In this document: piece after piece, positions 1,459-17,786 of the stretch
Layout: each line of letters begins with the position of its first letter
Position numbering within the stretch: the first letter of the stretch is position 1
Source of the DNA: a virus
Taxonomy: Duplodnaviria > Heunggongvirae > Uroviricota > Caudoviricetes
DNA length: 36,391 nucleotides
IMG/VR virus record: IMGVR_UViG_2534681704_000005
Span: 1 to 36,391 of that record
Reading direction: 5' to 3' (one strand)
Position numbers and translations under genes: made by a program
Notes under the pieces: generated by a model
Seen by the model: the letters and a program-made list of their open reading frames with translations, nothing else
Told to the model about the DNA's origin: nothing
Databases searched by the model: none

Positions 1459-2622
1459 TTACACATCATTAGTACCTTCCTTATTTTTTGACTGGGACAA
1501 ATTTGGGACCGATGGGTTCAGGATCGAGTCTATTTGCCGTGCGTGTTCGGTAAGGTGATTAGGTGCAAGGTGAGCATATCGACGAACCATTTCGATAGAC
1601 TCCCAGCCTCCCATTTCCTGTAACACTGACAACGGGACTCCGGCTTGAACCAGCCAACTTGCCCAGGTGTGTCTCAAGTCGTGAAATCTGAAATCATCAA
1701 TACCAGCCCGTCTCAGCGCCGCTTTCCAGGCTGTGTTTGCGTCATACCGCATCTTCCTTACTGTTGGCGCTTTCGTTCCGTCTGGTTTGGTACAGCTTTC
1801 CTTGTACACAAATACCCAACGGTGATGATTCCCGATTTGTTTTTTCAATACGCGACATGCAGTATCATTCAGCGCAACGCCAATTGCGCGGTTTGATTTA
1901 CTCTCTTCCGGGTTTATCCATGCCACCCGGCGCTGCATATCTATTTGTTGCCATTCAAGGTTGATGATGTTCGAGCGTCTTAAGCCTGTTGCCAGTGCAA
2001 ATTCAACAACAGACTTTAATGGCTCCGGACATTCATCAATCAGCCTTTGTGCTTCATGGGGCTCCAGCCAGCGGATCCGTTTATTCTTTGGTTGAGGCAC
2101 TTTAATAATTGGTGCCTTATCCAGCATTTTCCATTCACGCTCTGCGGCTCTTAGTAGGGCCTTTATAAATGAAAGATGCGTAGCCTTCGTTGCAACGGAC
2201 GCTGGTTTTGGCGTGTATTCTGGAACAGGTTTCCCTTTTTTTCTGCATGCTTCTGCCCTGAGTTTCCAGTTTTCCTCATGACGCCGGTTTGTCATTTTCT
2301 GCATTGCTGAATAAATTTTTGATTCAGTAATGTCTCTTAGTTGCATTCCTGCGAAATGTTGAAGCCAGAATCCGATCCGGCTTTTGTCATCGTCCAGTGA
2401 TTTTTTATGTGCTTTCTCTTCAAGCCACCTGACACACGCTTCCTCGAACGTTATATCAGGTATTTCACCAAGTTTGCTGACCCGCCATGCTTCAGCCTTT
2501 AGCTTGTCATGGAGTTCTGTCGCCTGCCTTTTGTCCTTTGTTCCAAGAGACTGTTTAAATCTTTTACCGTTCGGCAATGTGAAACTGGCGTACCATATTT
2601 CACCTCTGCGGAAGAGTGACAT
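1459..2622 (-). CDS. int: Tyrosine site-specific integrase (P22/SfV-like)
   Basis: 387-aa ORF starting [23 protein letters not shown]-terminal HDLRHTW...RYAH tyrosine-recombinase motifs; directly adjacent to thrW. Confidence 0.92.
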
Positions 2623-5060: not shown

Positions 5061-5423
5061 TTAACGACCTGCTGCGCGGAGTCTTCCGTCAGGTTCACCG
5101 GCAAGAGTCAGCAACTGTCCCTGGTCTTCCTGCAGAATAGTCAGGCGACCACCGCGATTGACATACATCGGCGTTTCGGTGGTGTCTTCTTCGGAAATTT
5201 TCCCGCGGTTAGTCGGGCGAACATATGAGAGTTTGTGTTTGATTTTCACTCGGTTCTCATCAAACGGTTCGATTTCTAGGTTGAGCGAGACCTTACCTTT
5301 GGTTTTCGTGTTCATCACACCGGAAGCGACTTCACTGAGAACTGCGCCGATTTTGGTTTCAAATACGCCGCCGTCCAGCTCCCCGATAAATGCCTGCACA
5401 TCAGTACTGCGTTCGCTAGCCAT
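5061..5423 (-). CDS. Hypothetical early protein, 120 aa (YfdP-like)
   Basis: Start taken at MASERSTDVQAF with SD GAGGAG 7 nt upstream; the 226-aa ORF in the track extends upstream through a low-complexity, likely non-coding stretch. Confidence 0.7.
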   Translation of the reverse strand: MASERSTDVQAFIGELDGGVFETKIGAVLSEVASGVMNTKTKGKVSLNLEIEPFDENRVKIKHKLSYVRPTNRGKISEEDTTETPMYVNRGGRLTILQEDQGQLLTLAGEPDGRLRAAGR

Positions 5424-5471
5424 TTTGCTGCTCCTCATCATATCGACCCTGCAAGGTCGGTTAGTTTCTCC

Positions 5472-5560
5472 ACAAAACAGAGAAGAACACCTGCGGTGAC
5501 TGCCGCCCGGATGGATTGGGTTATGAGCCCGTCGTCCGGTGATGCTCTTCTCTGTTTTGT
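5472..5560. repeat. 18-bp imperfect inverted repeat (ACAAAACAGAGAAGAACA / TGCTCTTCTCTGTTTTGT) flanking a 53-bp GC-rich spacer
   Basis: Arms at 5472-5489 and 5543-5560 match 17/18; lies in a roughly 420-bp ORF-poor GC-rich region upstream of the YfdP-like gene. Confidence 0.5.
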
Positions 5561-5861
5561 AAAAAGGACGGTACCAGCCGGAAGCAAGGGTACAAACTGG
5601 TACCGCCAGGACTACACACAGCATAAAGTTGTGGTGCCGGGTGCCTCCCGGTGCCTGGCGAAGGTTGCACACCAGACGGGTGGGTATCCACAGAAGGTCG
5701 ACTGTCAGCCTCAACCTTAACCCGCGTGCGCTGAGCCGCATTCACCACAACGCTAAGGATTCTCTCTGGTTGAAAATACTTAGCTGTTATGTGCCTGTCT
5801 TTTCACCACTTCAGGCTCGGTGGTATCTTGGTGTTTTCATATAGCCAAGAAGGAAATAGTT

Positions 5862-6053
5862 ATGACCAAAGAAGAAAAAATTCTTTATTTATTCCAACTA
5901 TCGGTTAAGACTCACACTGCATATCAGACTGCTGCCATGACATCAGATAAAAATTACAGTACGTCAGAAAACCCGATAGACGACATAAGCAAGCTTTACG
6001 ATAAGTTCGAAGCACTACTCGATAAAAAGTTTGCTGAGGCTGGGCTTGAGTGA
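5862..6053 (+). CDS. Small hypothetical protein, 63 aa (MTKEEKILYLFQLSVK...)
   Basis: ATG 5862 with SD AAGGAAA 5-6 nt upstream; AT-rich; 3' end overlaps the convergent 58-aa ORF by 39 bp. Confidence 0.4.
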   Translation: MTKEEKILYLFQLSVKTHTAYQTAAMTSDKNYSTSENPIDDISKLYDKFEALLDKKFAEAGLE

Positions 6054-6191
6054 TTGTTGAATAATCGACAAAACCCAACTTAAATTTTCGTCAGTGGGCT
6101 CGATGCCATGTGCGGTGAGCTCACTTTTCAAAACTCCAAGCAATTCAGAGCTGATTTTCAATATATCTGCTTGATTTCTAACTATTCCCAC
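6015..6191 (-). CDS. Small hypothetical protein, 58 aa (GTG start)
   Basis: GTG at 6191 preceded by AAGGGAGG with 5-nt spacer, much better than the ATG at 6221; no recognisable domain. Confidence 0.4.
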   Translation of the reverse strand: MGIVRNQADILKISSELLGVLKSELTAHGIEPTDENLSWVLSIIQQSLKPSLSKLFIE

Positions 6192-6280
6192 TTTTTCCTC
6201 CCTTGGTCTACGCGCGGTCATGTTTTACGCCCAAACGACTTCACAGTTATTGTTTAAAATCTGGACTTTCATTTTGTTCT

Positions 6281-6484
6281 TTAACCTCCAGATTTCCGCG
6301 CATCTAAAGGCGCATTCTCATTTGGTGTGAACTGAATAGTTGTGCTGATATTGATTAATGCCCCGACACACAAGACTACGCACTCAGAGCAGATAGCAAC
6401 TTCATCTTTTCCGCCTTTGGCGATGATTTTTTTTGCCTGCAGCTCGTTTGCGCCACAAAACGAGCATGTGAAATAACGGTTCAT
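6281..6484 (-). CDS. Stand-alone ClpX-type C4 zinc-finger (ZBD-like) protein, 67 aa
   Basis: MNRYFTCSFCGANELQAKKIIAKGGKDEVAICSECVVLC matches the CSFCG...ICxECVxLC pattern of the ClpX N-terminal zinc-binding domain; first ORF downstream of the predicted pL. Confidence 0.6.
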   Translation of the reverse strand: MNRYFTCSFCGANELQAKKIIAKGGKDEVAICSECVVLCVGALINISTTIQFTPNENAPLDARKSGG

Positions 6485-6578
6485 TTGCGCTCTCTTACAC
6501 ATAGTATTTAACGAATCATCCGGTCATTCATACGCCACCGGCGGCTACTTCGTGGGCGTCCTGCCTGTTCGTTGTTTT

Positions 6579-6594
6579 AACACCTTTAAGTTGT
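6579..6594. promoter_or_regulatory. OL operator-like 16-mer AACACCTTTAAGTTGT (15/16 identical to the OR copy)
   Basis: Near-identical 16-mers on both sides of cI; region rich in ACAAC/GTTGT half-site repeats. Confidence 0.4.
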
Positions 6595-6623
6595 AATTTA
6601 GTTGTGGTTTTGAATGTTGTCAA
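6595..6623 (-). promoter_or_regulatory. Candidate pL (leftward early promoter): -35 TTGACA, 17-bp spacer, -10 TAAATT
   Basis: Perfect -35 hexamer on the minus strand (plus 6618-6623), -10 at plus 6595-6600; conserved operator 16-mer lies at the predicted start site. Confidence 0.4.
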
Positions 6624-6686
6624 CAACTTTATGTGGTTTGAACGAGTAGCCAAGGAGTGCAAGGATTATCAAAAAAAGGAGGTTGT

Positions 6687-7577
6687 ATGGAAGACGCGCT
6701 TTACGCTTTTAATTACACACAGAACCGGGACAAGTTATTTGCTAACTTGATTAGCATCATTGATGGAATCATTGCAGATGGAGTTGTCCGTGAAGAGGAG
6801 GTTCTTTACTTAGATACATGGTTACTTGAAGCAAAGCAGATTATCAATAATGGAGTTATAAAAAGTCTATCAGCACGGGTGTCGGATATTCTTGCGGATG
6901 GAATAATCACATCAGAAGAACGTGATGACCTTAAAAATAGCCTTCTCCAAATACAGAGGGAAATTCTTGATATCCCTGAAATTGATTTTTACTCCAAGGA
7001 TGTAGATGTCCATTTACTTAATGGACTATGTAAAGGATTAATTGCTGATCGGAACTTAACTCAAGAAGAAATAAGATATCTTAATTGGTGGCTTGAGCAA
7101 AATGGAGCTTTGAAGAACAACTACCCAGGAAAAAAACTTTATGCACTTGTAAAGGAAATTCTTAAAGATGGTGTTATTACTGAAGATGAGAGTTTAACTC
7201 TACATAAGGCATTAGTAGACTTCACAGGATGTGACTTGGAAAGTGGGGTGGTGGATGGTTTGGCGACTAGGCTGCCTATTGATGTAGGGGCTTCGATAGA
7301 GTTAGAGGGTAAAACCTATTGTCTTACAGGCACTTTTGTTGCAGGAAAGAGAGCCGTAGTTGAAAATTTGATTAAAAATGCTGGTGGGAACATCAGTAGT
7401 GGAATTACTCAAAAGTTGGATTTTTTAGTAATTGGGACGCTTTCCTCCCGTGATTGGAAATTCTCAAGTCACGGAAGGAAGATCGAAAAGGCTATATCTT
7501 ATAGGGATGATAATGGTGCAAAACTTAAAATTATTTCTGAAGAAATGCTTTTCGATGCATTACCAAGTTCGCGATGA
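6687..7577 (+). CDS. Accessory protein with four TerB-like repeats and a C-terminal BRCT-like domain, 296 aa
   Basis: Strong SD AAGGAGG (6677-6683) before ATG 6687; repeats IADGVVREEE, LADGIITSEER, IADRNLTQEE, LKDGVITEDE; C-terminus GKTYCLTGTF...FLVIG...LKIISEEMLFDAL resembles BRCT; AT-rich; 3' end overlaps the cI stop by 18 bp (convergent). Confidence 0.8.
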   Translation: MEDALYAFNYTQNRDKLFANLISIIDGIIADGVVREEEVLYLDTWLLEAKQIINNGVIKSLSARVSDILADGIITSEERDDLKNSLLQIQREILDIPEIDFYSKDVDVHLLNGLCKGLIADRNLTQEEIRYLNWWLEQNGALKNNYPGKKLYALVKEILKDGVITEDESLTLHKALVDFTGCDLESGVVDGLATRLPIDVGASIELEGKTYCLTGTFVAGKRAVVENLIKNAGGNISSGITQKLDFLVIGTLSSRDWKFSSHGRKIEKAISYRDDNGAKLKIISEEMLFDALPSSR

Positions 7578-8246
7578 CCAGAATACCCTACCTATAACAT
7601 GAATTCTGGCTCGTCTATCTTCAAAGGTGAGTATTTCATCTGGGTACTCATCTTTGTTGAAGCTTCTAAGAATCAAGCCACCGTCAGGTAAGTTGATAAG
7701 TATTTTAACCCTTAGCAATACACCATCTCGTACGGCATAAAGATCGCCATCACGAATAGGAACGGTTTGAGAAATATCAACGGCAACAAGATCTCCATTA
7801 TTGAGAACCGGTAATAAACTGTTCCCCCATATTTTTACGATCTTGGCATTAGATGCACATACGCCAGATTTTCTCAAATCTGCTCTTCTTAATGGAAACC
7901 AGTCAATAGCTGATTCAACTATTTCAGCCAGACATCCGTTACCTGCCGATAACTCGACATCTAAAACAGGAATGTTTACGAAAATATCGGGGTCTAATGC
8001 GGTGCTTTCTGCTTCTTTTACAACAAGATCAGGTATGGATGCGTTGTCTTCAATACCAAGTTGTAACCACTTTTGTGATACACCTAAAACTTTTGCAATT
8101 TCTTTAATTTTGCGCGGTTGTAGAGTTTCGCCATTCTCTATTTTGGCTACAGATTGTTGTGAAAGTCCAATTTTTTCAGCTAGTTGAGCTTGGCTCATGC
8201 CAGCTTTCTCTCTACCTATCTTTAATCGTTCTGCCAGTGTTTTCAC
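7560..8246 (-). CDS. cI: CI-type prophage repressor (XRE HTH + S24 LexA-like autopeptidase)
   Basis: N-terminal HTH (MSQAQLAEKIGLSQQSVAKIENGE), Ala-Gly cleavage site (LSAGNG), Ser (WGNSLLP) and Lys (LLRVK) spaced as in LexA/CI; GTG start with SD GAGGGA; divergent from cro. Confidence 0.9.
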   Translation of the reverse strand: MKTLAERLKIGREKAGMSQAQLAEKIGLSQQSVAKIENGETLQPRKIKEIAKVLGVSQKWLQLGIEDNASIPDLVVKEAESTALDPDIFVNIPVLDVELSAGNGCLAEIVESAIDWFPLRRADLRKSGVCASNAKIVKIWGNSLLPVLNNGDLVAVDISQTVPIRDGDLYAVRDGVLLRVKILINLPDGGLILRSFNKDEYPDEILTFEDRRARIHVIGRVFWSSRTW

Positions 8247-11712: not shown

Positions 11713-12510
11713 ATGAATAATCTGATGGTTATTGATGGTATTGAAGTTCGTCGTGATGCTTATGGGCGTTACAGCCTGAACGATCTGCACAGGGCTGCTG
11801 GTTCTCTGGATAAGCATAAGCCTGCATTCTGGCTCCGCAATGAGCAAACTGAGCGTTTAATAAGCGAGTTGCAGATTTGCAACTCGGTTAATATAGAGCC
11901 AGTTAACGTTATTCGTGGCGGAAATAACCAGGGGACGTATGTCTGCAAAGAACTGGTGTATGCCTATGCAATGTGGATCAGCCCGTCATTCCATCTGAAG
12001 GTGATCCGTACTTTCGATATGGTAACCAGCGCACCGGAAAAATTATCCGGGCAGGCTGCTGACAAGATGCAGGCTGGTGTGATTCTGCTGGACTTTATGC
12101 GTCGGGAGTTAAACCTGTCTAACTCATCTGTGCTTGGTGCCTGTCAGAAACTCCAGGAGGCTGTTGGCTTACCGAATCTGGCACCGCGCTATGCCATTGA
12201 TGCTCCTGCTGACGCGCCTGATGGCTCAAGCCGCCCGACGCTGTCGCTGAGTGCACTGCTGAAGCAGTATGGTATCCGCCTGACAGCTAATCAGGCATAT
12301 CACCAGATGGTGAAACTGGGGATCGTCGAGCAGCGCGAACGATACAGCCGTACCGCGATTAACAACATCAAAAAATTCTGGTCGCTGACGGCGAAAGGCT
12401 GCATGTTCGGCAAGAACATCACCAGTCCTGCAAATCCGCGCGAGACGCAGCCGCACTTCTTCGAATCCCGATTCCCTGAGCTGTTAAAGCTGCTCGATAC
12501 CGTTCATTGA
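11713..12510 (+). CDS. KilA-N domain protein (antirepressor-like)
   Basis: Start at MNNLMVIDGIEVRRD with SD AGAGGAG; N-terminal KilA-N/APSES-like region. Confidence 0.7.
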   Translation: MNNLMVIDGIEVRRDAYGRYSLNDLHRAAGSLDKHKPAFWLRNEQTERLISELQICNSVNIEPVNVIRGGNNQGTYVCKELVYAYAMWISPSFHLKVIRTFDMVTSAPEKLSGQAADKMQAGVILLDFMRRELNLSNSSVLGACQKLQEAVGLPNLAPRYAIDAPADAPDGSSRPTLSLSALLKQYGIRLTANQAYHQMVKLGIVEQRERYSRTAINNIKKFWSLTAKGCMFGKNITSPANPRETQPHFFESRFPELLKLLDTVH

Positions 12511-12511
12511 G

Positions 12512-13507
12512 GTGACCGTGAGAGCACTACTGACCCCTGAAATTGCCCCGCGTATGGGGATCGTATTGTTCAGACCAGGTTCAGAGCTGATGCCCCTGTT
12601 TATGCAGGGGCGTGTCCTGCTGGAGCCTGAGCCGGAACGTTATTCATCTTTCGCCAGTGGTGCCGTTCCGGCGGCATCACAACCGCTGGCGGATGATCCT
12701 GCCGTTCGGGCCGTGTTCCGCAATGAGGCAGTGATCCGTCGTGCTGGTGGAGTGGAATGTCTTGAAAGCTGGTTACTTCGTGAAAAAGGCTGCCAGTGGC
12801 CTCATTCCGACTGGCACAGCGAGAACATGACCACAATGCGACACGCGCCGGGCGCAATCCGTCTGTGCTGGCACTGCGATAACCAGCTGCGCGATCAGTT
12901 CACGGAACGGCTGGAATCAATGGCAACGGATAACTGTGCCCGCTGGGTGTTATCTGTTGTGCGCCGTGATCTCGGTTTTGATGATAGTCACGTTGTGACA
13001 ATGCCGGAACTGTGCTGGTGGCTGGTTCGTAATGACCTGGCTGATGCCTTACCGGAAAGTGCAGCCCGTAAGGCACTGAGATTACCGAAGCCTGTTGTGC
13101 CGTCTGTCACCCGGGAGAGTGACCTTGTTCCTTCGGTTCCTGCCACCAGCATTATCCAGGATAAAGCGAAAAAGGTGCTGGCGCTGAAAGTGGATCCAGA
13201 GTCGCCGGAGTCTTTTATGTTACGCCCAAAACGTCGCCGCTGGGTTAATGAAAAGTACACGCGCTGGGTTAAGACACAGCCGTGTGCATGTTGTGGAAAG
13301 CCTGCTGATGATCCCCATCACCTGATAGGCCACGGTCAGGGTGGAATGGGTACAAAAGCGCATGACCTCTTTGTGTTGCCTTTGTGCAGAAAGCATCACG
13401 ACGAGCTGCATGCGGATACCGTGGCATTTGAAGAGATGTATGGCTCCCAGCTGGAGCTGATATTTCGTTTTATCGATCGTGCGCTGGCAACAGGCGTACT
13501 GGCGTAA
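12512..13507 (+). CDS. Phage protein with C-terminal Cys/His-rich motif (DUF968-like, tentative)
   Basis: C-terminal CACCGKPADDPHHLIGHG...CRKHHDELH; GTG start assumed, exact start uncertain. Confidence 0.55.
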   Translation: MTVRALLTPEIAPRMGIVLFRPGSELMPLFMQGRVLLEPEPERYSSFASGAVPAASQPLADDPAVRAVFRNEAVIRRAGGVECLESWLLREKGCQWPHSDWHSENMTTMRHAPGAIRLCWHCDNQLRDQFTERLESMATDNCARWVLSVVRRDLGFDDSHVVTMPELCWWLVRNDLADALPESAARKALRLPKPVVPSVTRESDLVPSVPATSIIQDKAKKVLALKVDPESPESFMLRPKRRRWVNEKYTRWVKTQPCACCGKPADDPHHLIGHGQGGMGTKAHDLFVLPLCRKHHDELHADTVAFEEMYGSQLELIFRFIDRALATGVLA

Positions 13508-13521
13508 GTGGAGAACTCTAA

Positions 13522-14100
13522 ATGATTAATCCTTCTGAAATTGGCAAAACGGGTGAAATGGTTCGTCTTCGTACTCTGGAAAGTATCTGGGTTCAGGGTA
13601 AGCTCCGCATGTGGGGACGCTGGTCTTATATCGGCGGTGGTAGTGGTGGGAACATGTTTAACCAGCTACTGGCATCTGGAAAAATTACCAAAACGGCAAT
13701 TAAAGAAGCGCTACGCCGGATGAAAAAAGCGGGTATCAGCAAACCAGAGCTGGAAGCGTTTTTCAAAGAGATTCAGGAAGGGCAGAATAAAAGCGGTCTG
13801 GCGTTCTGTACCGATGAGGAAGCGCTGACCATCAACGCTGTACTCAGCGATGTCCTTGTGCAGTCAGGACATAAGAATTTATACGCTCTTATTGAAGATC
13901 GTTATATCAAACGCCTTAGCAAAAAGGCAATGGCAAGAGACCTAAATAAAAAGCATCCTGAATGGTGTTTGCGAACCTGTGAAAGCCGGATTGATGTTTG
14001 GCTAAATGTAGCAGAATCGATGCTATACAAGCCAATGTGTGATGCATTTGGCACAAATGGCGACAGATTCCGCTTGAATAGTTGCGCGGAAAGTGCTTGA
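13522..14100 (+). CDS. Late-gene antiterminator Q-like protein, 192 aa
   Basis: Position immediately upstream of terminators and lysis genes; SD GTGGAGAA; assignment mostly positional. Confidence 0.55.
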   Translation: MINPSEIGKTGEMVRLRTLESIWVQGKLRMWGRWSYIGGGSGGNMFNQLLASGKITKTAIKEALRRMKKAGISKPELEAFFKEIQEGQNKSGLAFCTDEEALTINAVLSDVLVQSGHKNLYALIEDRYIKRLSKKAMARDLNKKHPEWCLRTCESRIDVWLNVAESMLYKPMCDAFGTNGDRFRLNSCAESA

Positions 14101-14150
14101 ATTATGTTAAGCTCAGAGCGTTAAAGCGAACTGATGCAACAGAACAAATA

Positions 14151-14175
14151 AAAACCCGCCATTGTGCGGGTTTTT
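14151..14175. terminator. Bidirectional rho-independent terminator (AAAACCCGC-CATTGT-GCGGGTTTT plus T-run)
   Basis: GC stem with U-tracts on both strands; 50 nt after Q stop and 7 nt after the stop of the convergent moron. Confidence 0.7.
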
Positions 14176-14181
14176 GCATAT

Positions 14182-14661
14182 CTAGAGCAGACCTATAGCG
14201 CCACCGGCAATAGCAGTAAGTAAAGGATGTTCTGCTAACTTTCTTAGCAGCCCCTTTGCTTCTTCTTTCTGCTGTGGCGTACCCTGAGAGCTATTTATTA
14301 AGTTATTCAGCGTCTCGATGCTATTGGTAATCTCCTGACGGTTATGATCTCCAATCTGTACATTCCCTCCGTGAATGTTGATTTGCTGAGAAGAAATAGT
14401 TGGTTGTATCTTTTTGGGGCCAACCTTGAGTTGGAAGTGTGGGCCAAAACCGCCAATGCTAGTGTCGTAAAAATTAGCTTTATAAATTTCTTTATGTTCT
14501 TCCTTACCGTTTGGAAGGAGTCGAACAACAGTATCCCCGTCATCGATGTCGGCCATTTGGTCGTTTACGATAATTGTATCACCTGCAAACTTGGCCTTAT
14601 ACGGGCCGCATCTGCTGCCATCACGTTTTAAGATGTAGGCATCGTCTTTAGCTGTAAACAT
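14182..14661 (-). CDS. Accessory (moron) protein of unknown function, 159 aa, hydrophobic C-terminal tail
   Basis: Opposite strand to the late operon, SD GGAG 5 nt before ATG, flanked by terminators; ends LLTAIAGGAIGLL; AT-rich. Confidence 0.7.
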   Translation of the reverse strand: MFTAKDDAYILKRDGSRCGPYKAKFAGDTIIVNDQMADIDDGDTVVRLLPNGKEEHKEIYKANFYDTSIGGFGPHFQLKVGPKKIQPTISSQQINIHGGNVQIGDHNRQEITNSIETLNNLINSSQGTPQQKEEAKGLLRKLAEHPLLTAIAGGAIGLL

Positions 14662-14773
14662 TTCTACTCCTGTGTAAAGTCATAGCCAGAAAACGCTGAC
14701 GCTAAACATTTACCGTTAAATGTCAGGGAAGTATGAGATATAGGTCAAAAAAGACAATTTAATGAAACATAAG

Positions 14774-14799
14774 GCCTCGCAATTAAGCGGGGCTTTTTT
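14774..14799 (+). terminator. Rho-independent terminator (GCCTCGC-AATTAA-GCGGGGC plus T6), candidate tR'
   Basis: 7-bp stem including one G-U pair followed by TTTTTT, upstream of the holin gene. Confidence 0.55.
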
Positions 14800-14913
14800 C
14801 ATTTCAGGCTCACGGGAATCATCCGCTACGTGCTTTGGTGATAAATACAGCCCGAGAAACCTGATACACCTTTCATCATTAAGCGCCATCCGAACTATCG
14901 GAGGTGAGAGACC

Positions 14914-15255
14914 ATGAAAATGCATAACGATCCTCATTCCTGGCCTGACTTACTTGAATTGTTTCAGAGCTGGTGGCGTGGAGACACACCGCTGGGCGCA
15001 GTGATTATGTCGATTGTTATGGCTGGTTTACGTATTGCCTATTTTGGCGGTGGTGGTGGCTGGAAGCGAAAAACACTCGAAATTCTACTCTGTGGCGCTC
15101 TGACGCTGACTTTTGCATCCGCTCTTGAGTATGTCGGATGGCCTAAATCACTATCTGTTGCCATTGGTGGTGGAGTGGGGCTGATCGGTGTCGATGCTAT
15201 TCGTGGGGCTGCAATGCGAGTAATCGGTAACAAATTTGGTGGCTCTAAGGAGTAA
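14914..15255 (+). CDS. Holin (lambda S-like, dual-start MKM motif)
   Basis: Strong SD GGAGGTGA; three predicted hydrophobic segments and a charged C-terminus; immediately upstream of the endolysin. Confidence 0.8.
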   Translation: MKMHNDPHSWPDLLELFQSWWRGDTPLGAVIMSIVMAGLRIAYFGGGGGWKRKTLEILLCGALTLTFASALEYVGWPKSLSVAIGGGVGLIGVDAIRGAAMRVIGNKFGGSKE

Positions 15256-15258
15256 TTT

Positions 15259-15735
15259 ATGCAGGTACTAAATTCCCAGCGTAAAGCTTTCCTTGATATG
15301 GTGGCTTGGTCAGAAGGAACGGATAACGGGCGACAACCGACACGTAACCACGGTTATGATGTTATTGTTGGTGGCAAACTGTTCACTGATTACTCCGATC
15401 ACCCTCGCAAACTTGTCACGCTAAACCCCAAACTCAAATCAACAGCCGCCGGACGTTACCAGCTTCTTTCACGCTGGTGGGATGCTTACCGTAAACAGCT
15501 TGGCCTGAAAGATTTTTCTCCAGAAAGCCAGGACGCTGTAGCTCTGCAGCAGATTAAAGAGCGTGGCGCTTTACCGATGATTGACCGCGGCAATATTCGT
15601 CAGGCAATCGACCGTTGCAGCAATATCTGGGCGTCGTTACCAGGTGCAGGTTACGGTCAGTATGAACATAAAATCGGCGACCTGATTGCCCGATTTAAAG
15701 AGGCTGGTGGGGTAGTAAATGAAGCTGAGATATAA
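15259..15735 (+). CDS. R: Endolysin, lambda R-type lytic transglycosylase
   Basis: Near-identical over long stretches to lambda R as recalled (NSQRKAFLDMVAWSEGTDNGRQPTRNHGYDVIVGG...). Confidence 0.92.
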   Translation: MQVLNSQRKAFLDMVAWSEGTDNGRQPTRNHGYDVIVGGKLFTDYSDHPRKLVTLNPKLKSTAAGRYQLLSRWWDAYRKQLGLKDFSPESQDAVALQQIKERGALPMIDRGNIRQAIDRCSNIWASLPGAGYGQYEHKIGDLIARFKEAGGVVNEAEI

Positions 15736-16111
15736 GCTGGTTATTGTTGCCTTCTTTGTTACCGTCATTGGTTCCTTCATCTGGTCTGCCGGGCATTACT
15801 ACAGCAAATATCAGCACGAAAAGGAGCGTGCTGATGAGGCTGTACGAAATGCTGAATCGGCAACTGCCATTACCAATAACGTCCTGCAATCAATACAAAT
15901 CGTAAATACAGCACTGGAGGCTAGCCAGCATGCAAAACAACAAATCGCACTGGAGTCACAGAGAACCCAGGAAGATATCAAAGTGGCTGTTGCGAATGAT
16001 GATTGCGCTTCACGTCCTGTGCCTGCTGCCGCTACTGACCGGTTGCGGAAGTACGCGGACAGTTTACGTGAGCACCCCAGTAGCACCACTGTCAACCACC
16101 CTAACTTCTGA
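15719..16111 (+). CDS. i-spanin (Rz-like)
   Basis: N-terminal transmembrane segment then coiled-coil-like region; overlaps the endolysin stop. Confidence 0.7.
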   Translation: MKLRYKLVIVAFFVTVIGSFIWSAGHYYSKYQHEKERADEAVRNAESATAITNNVLQSIQIVNTALEASQHAKQQIALESQRTQEDIKVAVANDDCASRPVPAAATDRLRKYADSLREHPSSTTVNHPNF

Positions 16112-16244
16112 AACACCGATTCCAATTATACCTAGTCCACTGACATATGGTGCTAGCCTAGACCTGAATGCAAGTTTGTTATCTGCATTAGGGCAGTGCA
16201 ATAGAGATAAAAAGGCTATCCGCAGTATAAACAATGCTAGATGA
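15996..16244 (+). CDS. o-spanin lipoprotein (Rz1-like), embedded in and extending past Rz in another frame
   Basis: Signal peptide with lipobox LLTGC followed by a Pro-rich mature region; classic Rz/Rz1 overlap. Confidence 0.6.
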   Translation: MMIALHVLCLLPLLTGCGSTRTVYVSTPVAPLSTTLTSETPIPIIPSPLTYGASLDLNASLLSALGQCNRDKKAIRSINNAR

Positions 16245-16322
16245 AGATTTTAATTTAAATTGAAGATGCCTATTACTAGACATCTTTATAATTTATGCTC
16301 AAACCAAAGTGGATTTGTAATA

Positions 16323-16697
16323 TTAAAGACTATTTAGGAGACTCTGAATAATAGGCCATAAAGTTAATGTGTTTGCACCAGCTGAGTAAAATCGCTCCAT
16401 CAGTTGTAGAGGTGTTGATGACTGATTAAACTTGATATCATTTAAAATGTCGTATATTTCTTGTAGCTTCTCTGCACCCAGCTTATCGTTAATTTCACTT
16501 AAGTTATTTTGTATGGCGATTTCTGCTTCTTTTATAAGCCGAACTGTTTCTGCTGAGTAATGAATATTGTTGGAAAGAAAAGTATTAGCTGAATCAATAA
16601 TTTCATAACCAACTTCAGCACCAAATGATTTGTTTCCAATCATTTTGATGTTTTCGCATCCCTTAATGCGATAAGCAACGGTTTTCTTTTCACTCAT
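16323..16697 (-). CDS. Accessory (moron) protein of unknown function, 124 aa
   Basis: Antisense to the late operon in a visibly AT-rich block between Rz1 and the HNH gene; no recognisable domain. Confidence 0.6.
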   Translation of the reverse strand: MSEKKTVAYRIKGCENIKMIGNKSFGAEVGYEIIDSANTFLSNNIHYSAETVRLIKEAEIAIQNNLSEINDKLGAEKLQEIYDILNDIKFNQSSTPLQLMERFYSAGANTLTLWPIIQSLLNSL

Positions 16698-16824
16698 GTT
16701 ATAACCTGTGTTTAGTTACTTTTATTAGAACCTTGTTATCAGATTTTTCTCATAAAGGAAAGAGTGAAAGAGAAAAATGAATCTCTTTTGTCAAATATGT
16801 CTATCAGATTAAAGAGAGTATTTT

Positions 16825-17175
16825 ATGCCAGCACTGATACCTAGAGCCTGCCGTGTTCGCGGCTGCCACCATACCACGACTGACCCGTCAGGCTATTGCG
16901 AAAGCCACAAAAGCGAAGGCTGGAAGCAATACAAGCCAGGCCAGTCCCGTCATCAGCGCGGCTACGGTTCGAAGTGGGACAGTATCCGCGCGCGTGTCCT
17001 GAAGCGTGACAAAGGCCTGTGTCAGTTATGTCTGCGTGCTGGTGTGGTGCGTGAGGCGAAAACCGTTGACCATATCATCCCTAAAGCGCATGGTGGCACT
17101 GATGCCGACAGTAATCTGCAGAGCCTGTGCTGGCCGTGTCATAAGGCGAAGACGGCCCGTGAACGGTTAAAGTGA
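16825..17175 (+). CDS. HNH endonuclease (packaging-associated)
   Basis: Cys/His pattern (CHHTTTDPSGYCESH...HIIPKAHGG...CWPCH); directly upstream of the terminase genes as in HK97-like cos phages. Confidence 0.85.
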   Translation: MPALIPRACRVRGCHHTTTDPSGYCESHKSEGWKQYKPGQSRHQRGYGSKWDSIRARVLKRDKGLCQLCLRAGVVREAKTVDHIIPKAHGGTDADSNLQSLCWPCHKAKTARERLK

Positions 17176-17201
17176 TAATAATTCTCAACTGTCTGAGGGG
17201 A

Positions 17202-17261
17202 GGGGCGGGTCAAATCTCTGTGACCTGACGTCTTCCGGACTGCCCGCCCCATCGTTTTTTT
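17202..17261. other. GC-rich inverted repeat GGGGCGGG...CCCGCCCC plus T7 tract; candidate cos-region element or terminator
   Basis: 8-bp perfect arms 33 bp apart between HNH and terS; left arm recalls the lambda cohesive-end GGGCGGCGACC. Confidence 0.3.
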
Positions 17262-17300
17262 ATACCCGCGAAAAATGAAATTTAACCTGGAGTGCCGCAT

Positions 17301-17786
17301 ATGGCTGGAACGGCGGGGCGTTCCGGGCGTCGCCCCAAGCCAACGGCGCGCAAGGCGCTGGCCGGAAACCCCGGCAAGCGAGCCCTGAATAAAGATGAAC
17401 CTGTTTTTACGCCCATCAAAGGTGTTGAGCCACCGGAGTGGTTCGCTGAAGAAGATCTCCCTCTCGCCACGATCATGTGGCAACTGACAACCAAAGAACT
17501 CTGCGGTCAGGGCCTGCTGTGCGTGACTGACCTGGCGGTACTTGAGCGGTGGTGTGTGGCCTATGAGTTCTGGCGACGTGCCGTGAAAAATATTGCCAGA
17601 CAGGGTAACACCATCACCGGTGCAATGGGTGGCATGGTCAAAAATCCGGAGCTGACCGCCAAAAAAGAACAGGAGTCCGAGATGAGCAGCACGGGGGCAA
17701 TGCTCGGACTCGACCCCAGCAGCCGCCAGCGTCTGATTGGCCTGGCGGGGAAGAAGAAAGCCACTAACCCGTTTCTGACAATCTGA
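17301..17786 (+). CDS. Terminase small subunit
   Basis: ATG 17301 with SD GGAG 8 nt upstream; basic N-terminus; precedes the large subunit. Confidence 0.8.

Follow-up and report, generated by a model that had tools for sequence, protein, structure and literature searches.

A conserved, structured non-coding RNA module in the early-left operon of an SfV/ST64B-type prophage, with an STnc100-type core and putative RprA- and DicF-type parts

What does an early-left operon of a lambdoid prophage carry in a stretch that appears to encode no protein? The stretch lies at 5440-5860 of the window (by which we mean the whole 36,391 nucleotides of viral DNA analysed here), in a prophage of the SfV/SfII-like lambdoid type (SfV/ST64B-type). 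The first-pass annotation described it as a GC-rich, ORF-poor leader of the early-left operon with an 18-bp inverted repeat, and offered a structured RNA element (antitermination site, processing site or sRNA), a recombination or protein-binding site, or a decayed gene as explanations. The description itself holds. The GC content is 0.52-0.58 over 5400-5800 and 0.375-0.455 in the flanks on both sides, and the only ORFs within the stretch overlap one another and are of low complexity. The location in the early-left operon, whose sense is the minus strand, is borne out by a yfdP-like gene, a cI-like repressor gene and a candidate pL, and the neighbouring left-operon genes are all on the minus strand:

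1459-2622, minus strand: int, reached after yfdP through yfdQ, yfdR ... xis
5061-5426, minus strand: yfdP-like gene (phrog_204), the first gene downstream of the module
6512-6574, minus strand: unannotated near-invariant 62-nt element, (A)ACGAACAGGCAGGACGCCCACGAAGUAGCCGCCGGUGGCGUAUGAAUGACCGGAUGAUUCGUU, just downstream of the candidate pL
6623-6595, minus strand: candidate pL (TTGACA 6618-6623, 17-nt spacing, TAAATT 6595-6600)
7560-8246, minus strand: cI-like repressor gene

The candidate pL is homologous to the pL region of ST64B, and the module described below starts ~800 nt from it. An AT-rich island (5862-7577) separates pL from the module and holds four ORFs: one of 63 aa on the opposite strand (5862-6053, plus strand), one of 68 aa (6015-6221, minus strand), one encoding a 73-aa ClpX-type zinc finger (6281-6502, minus strand), and one encoding a 306-aa BRCT-domain protein (6657-7577, plus strand). 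ST64B is without the AT-rich insert, and its pL lies ~380 nt from the module. The sole Rfam match in the window at gathering thresholds is a tRNA (1369-1441).

The minus-strand RNA of 5427-5800 folds with −158 kcal/mol (z = −5.8) and the plus-strand RNA with −144.2 kcal/mol (z = −4.0), which is ~14 kcal/mol worse, and several pairs can form only in the minus-strand RNA, as G-U. We find that 5461-5823 (minus strand) is an unannotated, highly structured non-coding RNA module, a conserved mosaic whose parts are, in the direction of transcription:

5806-5823, minus strand: H0 hairpin, CCACCgagccugaaGUGG, the 5′ edge of the conserved module
5752-5784, minus strand: P(-1) hairpin (stem 5752-5764/5772-5784), adjoining the core
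5628-5751, minus strand: STnc100-type core, 124 nt
5743-5751 with 5628-5636, minus strand: P0 closing helix, 9 bp here (family (R)UGGUG/CACCA(Y))
5724-5739, minus strand: P1 hairpin with UNNGC loop
5712-5718 (AAGGUUG) with 5661-5667 (CAACCUU, in the P3 loop), minus strand: pseudoknot
5670-5676 with 5654-5660, minus strand: P3 helix
5637-5651, minus strand: invariant P4 hairpin, CCGGG-AGGCA-CCCGG
5608-5627, minus strand: single-stranded linker, candidate seed
5559-5607, minus strand: intrinsic terminator (hairpin 5567-5607, U-tract 5559-5566)
5472-5560, minus strand: long three-way hairpin from the inverted repeat
5461-5471, minus strand: conserved tail, GGAGAAACUAA, the 3′ edge, with a mosaic junction right after it
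5444-5459, minus strand: small hairpin, CGACCuugcaGGGUCG, preceding the yfdP ribosome-binding site

Both module boundaries are mosaic junctions independent of the neighbouring genes. The 5′ junction is sharp and lies just upstream of CCACC (5823), from which point on loci with differing upstream genes share sequence; on the 3′ side the sequence is kept up to GGAGAAAC(U/C)AA and then diverges before yfdP, yfdR or an unrelated ORF. The hairpin at 5444-5459 belongs to the yfdP cassette and is outside the module. A repeat scan returned further exact or near-exact stems that the first-pass annotation had not listed (5569-5577/5597-5605, 5628-5636/5743-5751 and 5752-5764/5772-5784). Hairpins of other sequence stand at the P(-1) position in ST64B (GAUAAGAGUU..AACUCUUAUC) and phiES15 (AUGAAGCGCAUU..AAUGCGCUUCAU), and P(-1) is a candidate processing site. 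The module is present in a single copy in the window, as neither a motif search nor an Rfam E-value scan of 12500-17500 gave a second copy in the late region. A consensus scan returned no promoter of its own with at least 9/12 matches adjoining it; the best one found by hand (aaGACA-17-TATTTT, 8/12 matches) is not conserved in ST64B or phiES15. As no convincing promoter lies by the module, the RNA may be absent from the uninduced lysogen. Three E. coli prophages (L016, L042, L079) carry direct repeats, TTGTTGGGGA(A/T)AACCAG, in two copies ~30 nt apart immediately before the 5′ junction.

The first-pass annotation had proposed an Rfam scan and a covariation check in relatives as tests, and both gave a signal. 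In an Rfam E-value scan, positions 1-206 of the STnc100 model (RF02076) align to 5781-5559 (minus strand), terminal terminator hairpin included, with 41.2 bits and E = 3.5e-7. The score is below the gathering score of 47; the full-length architecture and the location in a lambdoid prophage are those of STnc100. Standard STnc100 members score 54-165 bits in Rfam and often have two or three tandem core-terminator units, and the two window-type relatives tested (L013 and L081) are also below the Rfam threshold. STnc100 and PasD are prophage-encoded sRNAs of Salmonella and pathogenic E. coli whose function is unknown in published work; relatives are Northern-verified, and the stability of PasD is Hfq-dependent, with RIL-seq partners (PMC5331693, PMC8550237). 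The module has in common with them the UGGUG/CACCA closing helix (extended here), the GAAU junction, P1 with its UNNGC loop, P3, the invariant P4 (CACCGGGAGGCACCCGGCACCA), and a linker followed by an intrinsic terminator. It differs in the P1 stem (GCGGC/GC-CGC here, CCCCC/GGGG in STnc100), in the RprA-like linker, and in position, since STnc100 and PasD lie between Q or stx and the lysis genes whereas the module is in the early-left operon. In addition, extra hairpins precede the core where a promoter or tRNAs are found elsewhere, and a long second hairpin follows the terminator.

To define the fold, viral contigs were scanned with the invariant 22-mer CACCGGGAGGCACCCGGCACCA, which gave at least 120 loci with 96 distinct cores in 51 sequence clusters. 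All loci share P0, the GAAU junction, P1, a variable insert, P3 and the invariant P4, and all these core elements were located in the window. In a diverse 26-sequence alignment, 93.5% of the P0 and P1 cells are paired, and double-change cells number 49, compared with 16.3 in shuffles (0/500 shuffles as high); this signal collapses when the partner columns are slid. The P1 stem is wholly different between subfamilies (CCCC/GGGG, CUUU/AAAG, GCGGC/GC-CGC), with shape and loop kept. Among 53 representatives, P3 is formed by 38 different duplexes, and the P3 loop is complementary to 6-11 nt after P1 through 29 duplexes that differ in sequence but not in position, for example CCAGUC/GACUGG, AGACUGACAAA/UUUGUCAGUCU and AAGGCUG/CAGCCUU. 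The mean complementary run is 6.43 nt, compared with 4.58 ± 0.14 for permuted loops and partners (0/2000 as high). Thus P0, P1, the pseudoknot and P3 all covary, and the P3-loop pairing is an H-type pseudoknot that is absent from the Rfam consensus structure of STnc100. The literature searched is silent on the pseudoknot, on the dicF-dicB copy described below and on a phage RprA-like seed. The complementarity between CGCCAGG (5604-5610) and CCTGGCG (5654-5660), pointed out in the first-pass annotation, exists in the sequence but is not a conserved pairing: 5654-5660 is the 3′ arm of P3, with 5670-5676 as its partner, and 5604-5610 varies among E. coli relatives without compensating change. An antiterminator switch built on this pair was rejected for that reason.

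Between P0 and the terminator, the sequence of the window is UUUAUGCUGUGUGUAGUCCU. The 14 nt at 5610-5623 (UGCUGUGUGUAGUC) are identical to nt 62-75 of RprA, a core-genome Hfq-dependent sRNA. The identical block extends to 16 nt in many E. coli copies and to 19 nt in phiES15 (RprA nt 60-78; E = 3.5e-4 in 1.17 Mb of fetched DNA). The 14-nt identity in the window has E = 0.34 in the same 1.17 Mb and is not significant by itself, so the argument is based on the position of the block and its conservation across phages. The block is kept in the window, in Salmonella ST64B and in Cronobacter phiES15, whose terminator hairpins are unrelated, and a conserved linker with changing terminators is the pattern that would be expected for a trans-acting seed. 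In RprA the block lies in the last 47 nt and in the same place relative to the terminator hairpin; the processed 47-nt RprA is active alone and sufficient for one narP branch (PMC9262595). The remainder of RprA (RF00034) is missing here: its model has no match in the window at E ≤ 10, and neither a score of at least 70 bits nor the three stem-loops and the rpoS-pairing region were found. The phage-borne RNA also differs from RprA in not being Rcs-regulated.

We also compared the rprA gene (L128 373-478) with STnc100-type loci, and only the 3′ block and a terminator resemblance are in common. The single-stranded RprA block AUUGCUGUGUGUAGUCUUU matches the early-left subfamily, and there is a likeness between the RprA terminator GCCCAUCUCC..GGGCUUUUU and GCCCCUCUCCGGAGGGGCUUUUU, the STnc100 terminator of the EHEC type (z = 6.5 in a local alignment). 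Such resemblance of the RprA 3′ module to prophage sRNAs could reflect shared ancestry or module exchange. The idea that RprA is a degenerate STnc100 was rejected, as the STnc100 model does not match rprA.

The terminator consists of the hairpin GGCGGUACCAG..CUGGUACCGUC (5567-5607) and then CUUUUUAC (5559-5566; CUUUUU), folds with −23.8 kcal/mol (z = −3.4), and aligns to the STnc100 terminator in the Rfam model. Its 5′ arm matches DicF GGCGGUAUCAGUUU at 13/14 positions (GGCGGUA(U/C)CAGUUU). This arm is all that is shared with the DicF RNA: the DicF model (RF00039) gives 15.7 bits (E = 2.7) on the window, below its gathering score of 48, and the candidate seed is unrelated to the DicF seed (UUUCUGGUGACGUUU), which pairs with ftsZ. 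The setting is nevertheless similar, i.e. an sRNA (a putative one here) inside a repressor-controlled, pL-like operon of a lambdoid prophage with an STnc100-type core adjacent. In K-12 Qin, DicF (76.7 bits) is directly followed by an STnc100-like core (34.4 bits, E = 1.2e-5):

L155 2933-3142: unannotated STnc100-like core of K-12 Qin, in the dicF-dicB spacer, as leader of dicB

In the Qin core, P0 measures 18 bp, the pseudoknot is CAGUUAA/UUAACUG and P4 is compensated (CCUGG/CCAGG). The order of elements differs, being DicF, core, dicB in Qin and core, seed plus terminator, hairpin in the window. DicF is without a promoter of its own and is made from the DicA-repressed, pL-like dicBp transcript by termination together with cleavage by RNase III, which yields a 190-nt form, and by RNase E, which yields a 53-nt form; no longer products of read-through were detected at dicF (bioRxiv 10.1101/2023.04.14.536235). 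The module has the same pL-type operon position, with no adjoining promoter of at least 9/12 matches, though a weak one is conceivable.

Downstream of the terminator lies the inverted repeat emphasised in the first-pass annotation. It is real and longer than the 18 bp noted, with 25-nt arms (5472-5496/5536-5560) that are 84% complementary and 39 nt apart; it is a genuine part of the module but not its core. Alone, 5472-5560 folds with −47.8 kcal/mol (z = −6.5; 0/200 shuffles as good) into a three-way junction with a ~22-bp basal stem and two small hairpins. The repeat begins at the last bases of the terminator U-tract and accompanies the module whichever gene comes after. It is 85% identical to that of ST64B, with one G-C to A-U compensation, two one-sided pairing-preserving changes and one disruption, and the inner hairpin is compensated (GCGG/CCGC to GCUG/CAGC). 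Since RNase III takes part in making DicF, we read this hairpin, by analogy, as a candidate RNase III/processing site; it might alternatively be a back-up terminator.

The distribution of the family shows in which contexts such cores are placed. Most members have a Q antiterminator gene, or else stx2AB, on one side and the lysis genes on the other. The Q genes near relatives belong to four families (PF03589, PF06530, PF06576, PF06323), the downstream genes being holins, and with four different Q families the RNA is not a recognition site for one particular protein. In 10/51 clusters a TTGACx-17/18-TAAATT-type promoter ends 8-9 nt before GGUGAAU (8 nt in nine), so that the RNA begins at P0 in those clusters. 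About one quarter of instances are of the window type: they occupy an early-left operon, where the repressor precedes them and yfdP, yfdR, kil or other genes follow. When genomes were scanned at species level for the P1 pattern of this type, copies turned up in Escherichia, Shigella, Enterobacter, Pantoea, Mixta and K-12; K-12 CPS-53 is without the module. Among complete E. coli genomes, 2785/5426 match the module, 1814/5426 of them over at least 80% of its length.

Judged from sequence comparison, the module thus seems to be assembled from an STnc100-type core, a candidate RprA-type seed and a DicF-type terminator; it falls below the curated thresholds of all three families and is therefore best described as a new mosaic variant. 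Our preferred reading, to which we give a probability of roughly 60%, is that it works like the dicBF locus of Qin, with pL transcripts that end or are cut within it, releasing an Hfq-type sRNA, and a terminator that limits transcription of the genes from yfdP to int. Repressor-controlled pL transcripts, started with the 6512-6574 element, would cross two small ORFs, reach the module and terminate at 5559-5607. They would be trimmed at the flanking hairpins or in the linker, as at dicF, giving a long species of ~200-260 nt with core, seed and terminator, whose length would vary with the site of 5′ cleavage, and perhaps a second species of ~60 nt with seed and terminator. The released Hfq-type sRNA would use the RprA-like seed to base-pair in trans, and the terminator would gate yfdP-yfdQ-yfdR...xis-int, genes that would be reached only by read-through or by a terminator-resistant polymerase. 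As no own promoter is evident, expression would follow induction. Against this reading stands the sub-gathering Rfam score, and the elaborate conserved core exceeds the needs of a base-pairing sRNA, so that its main function could be cis-acting or protein-binding.

Several other explanations have to be weighed. We regard it as scarcely credible that the stretch, read on either strand, is a protein-coding gene in decay or holds a real small ORF. In the region equivalent to 5438-5748 PGAP calls a frameshifted 'hypothetical protein' pseudogene, ORFs in the stretch match phrog_3651 and phrog_33599, and a frame is open from 5741 into yfdP. The 112 ungapped nt that can be compared between the window and ST64B contain 18 substitutions, with flat codon-position counts in all six frames and at most 7/18 synonymous changes, that maximum occurring in a stop-filled frame. 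We read the PHROG matches as spurious: the phrog_3651 match lacks the N-terminal half of its profile (positions 1-87), which, if extended upstream along the plus strand, would overlap yfdP antisense, and the phrog_33599 ORF starts inside the terminator. Pfam gives no match in the stretch, and it is RNA helices that covary. Hence neither a decayed gene nor the intact conserved coding frame that the first-pass annotation had named as evidence against an RNA was found. A DNA-level site for recombination, replication or protein binding is an equally remote proposal for the inverted repeat, which with its 25-nt arms could form a cruciform or bind a dimeric protein and has an interior conserved at the sequence level; pairs that are G-U solely in the minus-strand RNA, the covariation of the inner hairpin, and a start exactly at the U-tract of an RNA module with which the repeat moves all argue for an RNA hairpin instead. 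The structured RNA on the operon sense strand foreseen in the first-pass annotation thus stands, with an sRNA or processing site as its best-fitting form, given the STnc100 homology, the DicF-like terminator and the helix covariation. The antitermination site, nut-like or put-like, that was also proposed there, which would make the polymerase terminator-resistant, is very improbable. In its favour, the module lies in a lambdoid left operon of a phage that, like HK022, has no obvious N gene, the RNA is highly structured with invariant nucleotides, and some relatives begin exactly at the transcription start, as putL does. HK022 putL and putR, however, do not align with 5440-5860 and have no likeness to it in sequence or fold, the STnc100 model has no match in HK022, and the ~70-nt two-stem RNA with put consensus blocks immediately downstream of pL or pR that defines put was not found in the module, which starts ~800 nt from pL and has a terminator of its own behind it. 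The relatives in late operons are placed behind Q genes of four families, a redundancy if termination were already suppressed by the RNA, and 6512-6574, 700 nt upstream, is the better candidate.

A leader or attenuator that acts purely in cis, to control, insulate or stabilise transcription and translation of what lies downstream (yfdP to int here; dicB, kil and holins elsewhere), with any released RNA a by-product that has no trans targets, is unlikely in our judgement. The core stands directly before ORFs with no intervening terminator in Qin (dicB), Enterobacter and Pantoea, it stands at the very start of late operons in the 10/51 clusters with a fixed promoter distance, tandem core-terminator arrays lie between Q and the lysis genes, and with its pseudoknot and near-invariant features it looks less like the body of an sRNA than like a domain that binds a protein or ligand. 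On the other hand, three genera keep the linker although their terminator stems differ, which fits a trans-acting seed and not a spacer, no alternative pairing links core to terminator, and the relatives are abundant, PasD having Hfq-dependent stability and RIL-seq partners (PMC5331693, PMC8550237). In a further reading, which we consider doubtful, an autonomous pseudoknotted core that binds a host protein, polymerase or ligand is fused to a DicF-type 3′ module with an RprA-copy seed, so that induction would release an RprA mimic and the left operon would be run largely by RNA and not by N. Such an autonomous core would be what lambdoid phages place at the heads of late operons and before kil/dicB-type genes. 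The dicBF-like release of an sRNA remains our preferred reading.

If the phage RNA is indeed an RprA mimic, it would rewire the host RprA regulon (envelope stress, biofilm, RpoS), and with a working seed, one in three E. coli strains would harbour, in inducible phage-borne form, some of the regulatory capacity of RprA. The whole or most of the module is present in 1814/5426 complete E. coli genomes, yet it is annotated merely as a frameshifted hypothetical protein, an annotation that can now be corrected. The conserved pseudoknot, the fixed position at promoter starts and the hidden K-12 dicF-dicB copy are new relative to the Rfam structure, and with them STnc100/PasD, until now an entry in sRNA lists whose function is unknown, becomes a defined RNA fold that is testable by mutation.

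The element at 6512-6574 may belong to the same picture. We identified it, unannotated, in 53 phage records of nine or more genera (Escherichia, Salmonella, Shigella, Citrobacter, Klebsiella, Yersinia, Pectobacterium, Providencia and Aeromonas) and, in a separate count, in at least 119 viral contigs. It is always found ~15-18 nt after the −10 hexamer, behind 33 different (repressor-controlled) promoter/operator sequences. This is the position of HK022 putL, although the predicted fold differs, and from its position the element may be an RNA antiterminator or read-through device, which we offer as a lead and not as a finding. If so, together with the module, it would make the SfV/ST64B-type left operon one that is run largely by RNA elements and not by N protein.

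In many family members the RNA begins at a TTGACx-17/18-TAAATT promoter and runs to a terminator ahead of the holin gene, which recalls the pR′-tR′ 6S RNA of lambda, whose pR′ has the same hexamers. There is no detectable homology, and lambda has only a degenerate look-alike downstream of tR′. The lambda late leader was rejected as a member, since its look-alike closing helix and P4-like hairpin give no Rfam match at E ≤ 1. The look-alike (L127 1040-1140, between tR′ and S) reads GUUGUGCUG-AAU...CCGGAAGCAGAACCGG-AUCACCA...CAGCACAAC, with a boxA-like UGCUCUUUCC before it, and boxA-like GUGCUCU(U/C)(U/C)CC motifs precede several Pantoea and Escherichia copies.

Variants in number and size were also seen. 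In seven loci (L019, L008, L025, L074, L021, L035, L005), two or three STnc100 units stand in tandem between Q and the lysis genes, every unit having its own terminator, and some arrays are directly 3′ of three tRNA genes. A 'mini' version with P0 and P4 only, GGUGGAUAAG-CCGGGCAUCAUCCCGG-CACCA, is located ~60-100 nt upstream of the core in L013, L051 and L061, downstream of a strong operator-bearing promoter (TTGACAatagttaccaaaatggTAATAG).

In the late region of the window, 14105-14175 (plus strand) has a sub-threshold isrJ match (27.8 bits; gathering score 37) directly 3′ of a Q-like gene (13522-14100), with further weak leader-like matches there, which suggests a structured late leader or terminator. 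The early-right region of ST64B (L125 5232-5308, plus strand) contains a true isrK match of 64.3 bits (gathering score 50).
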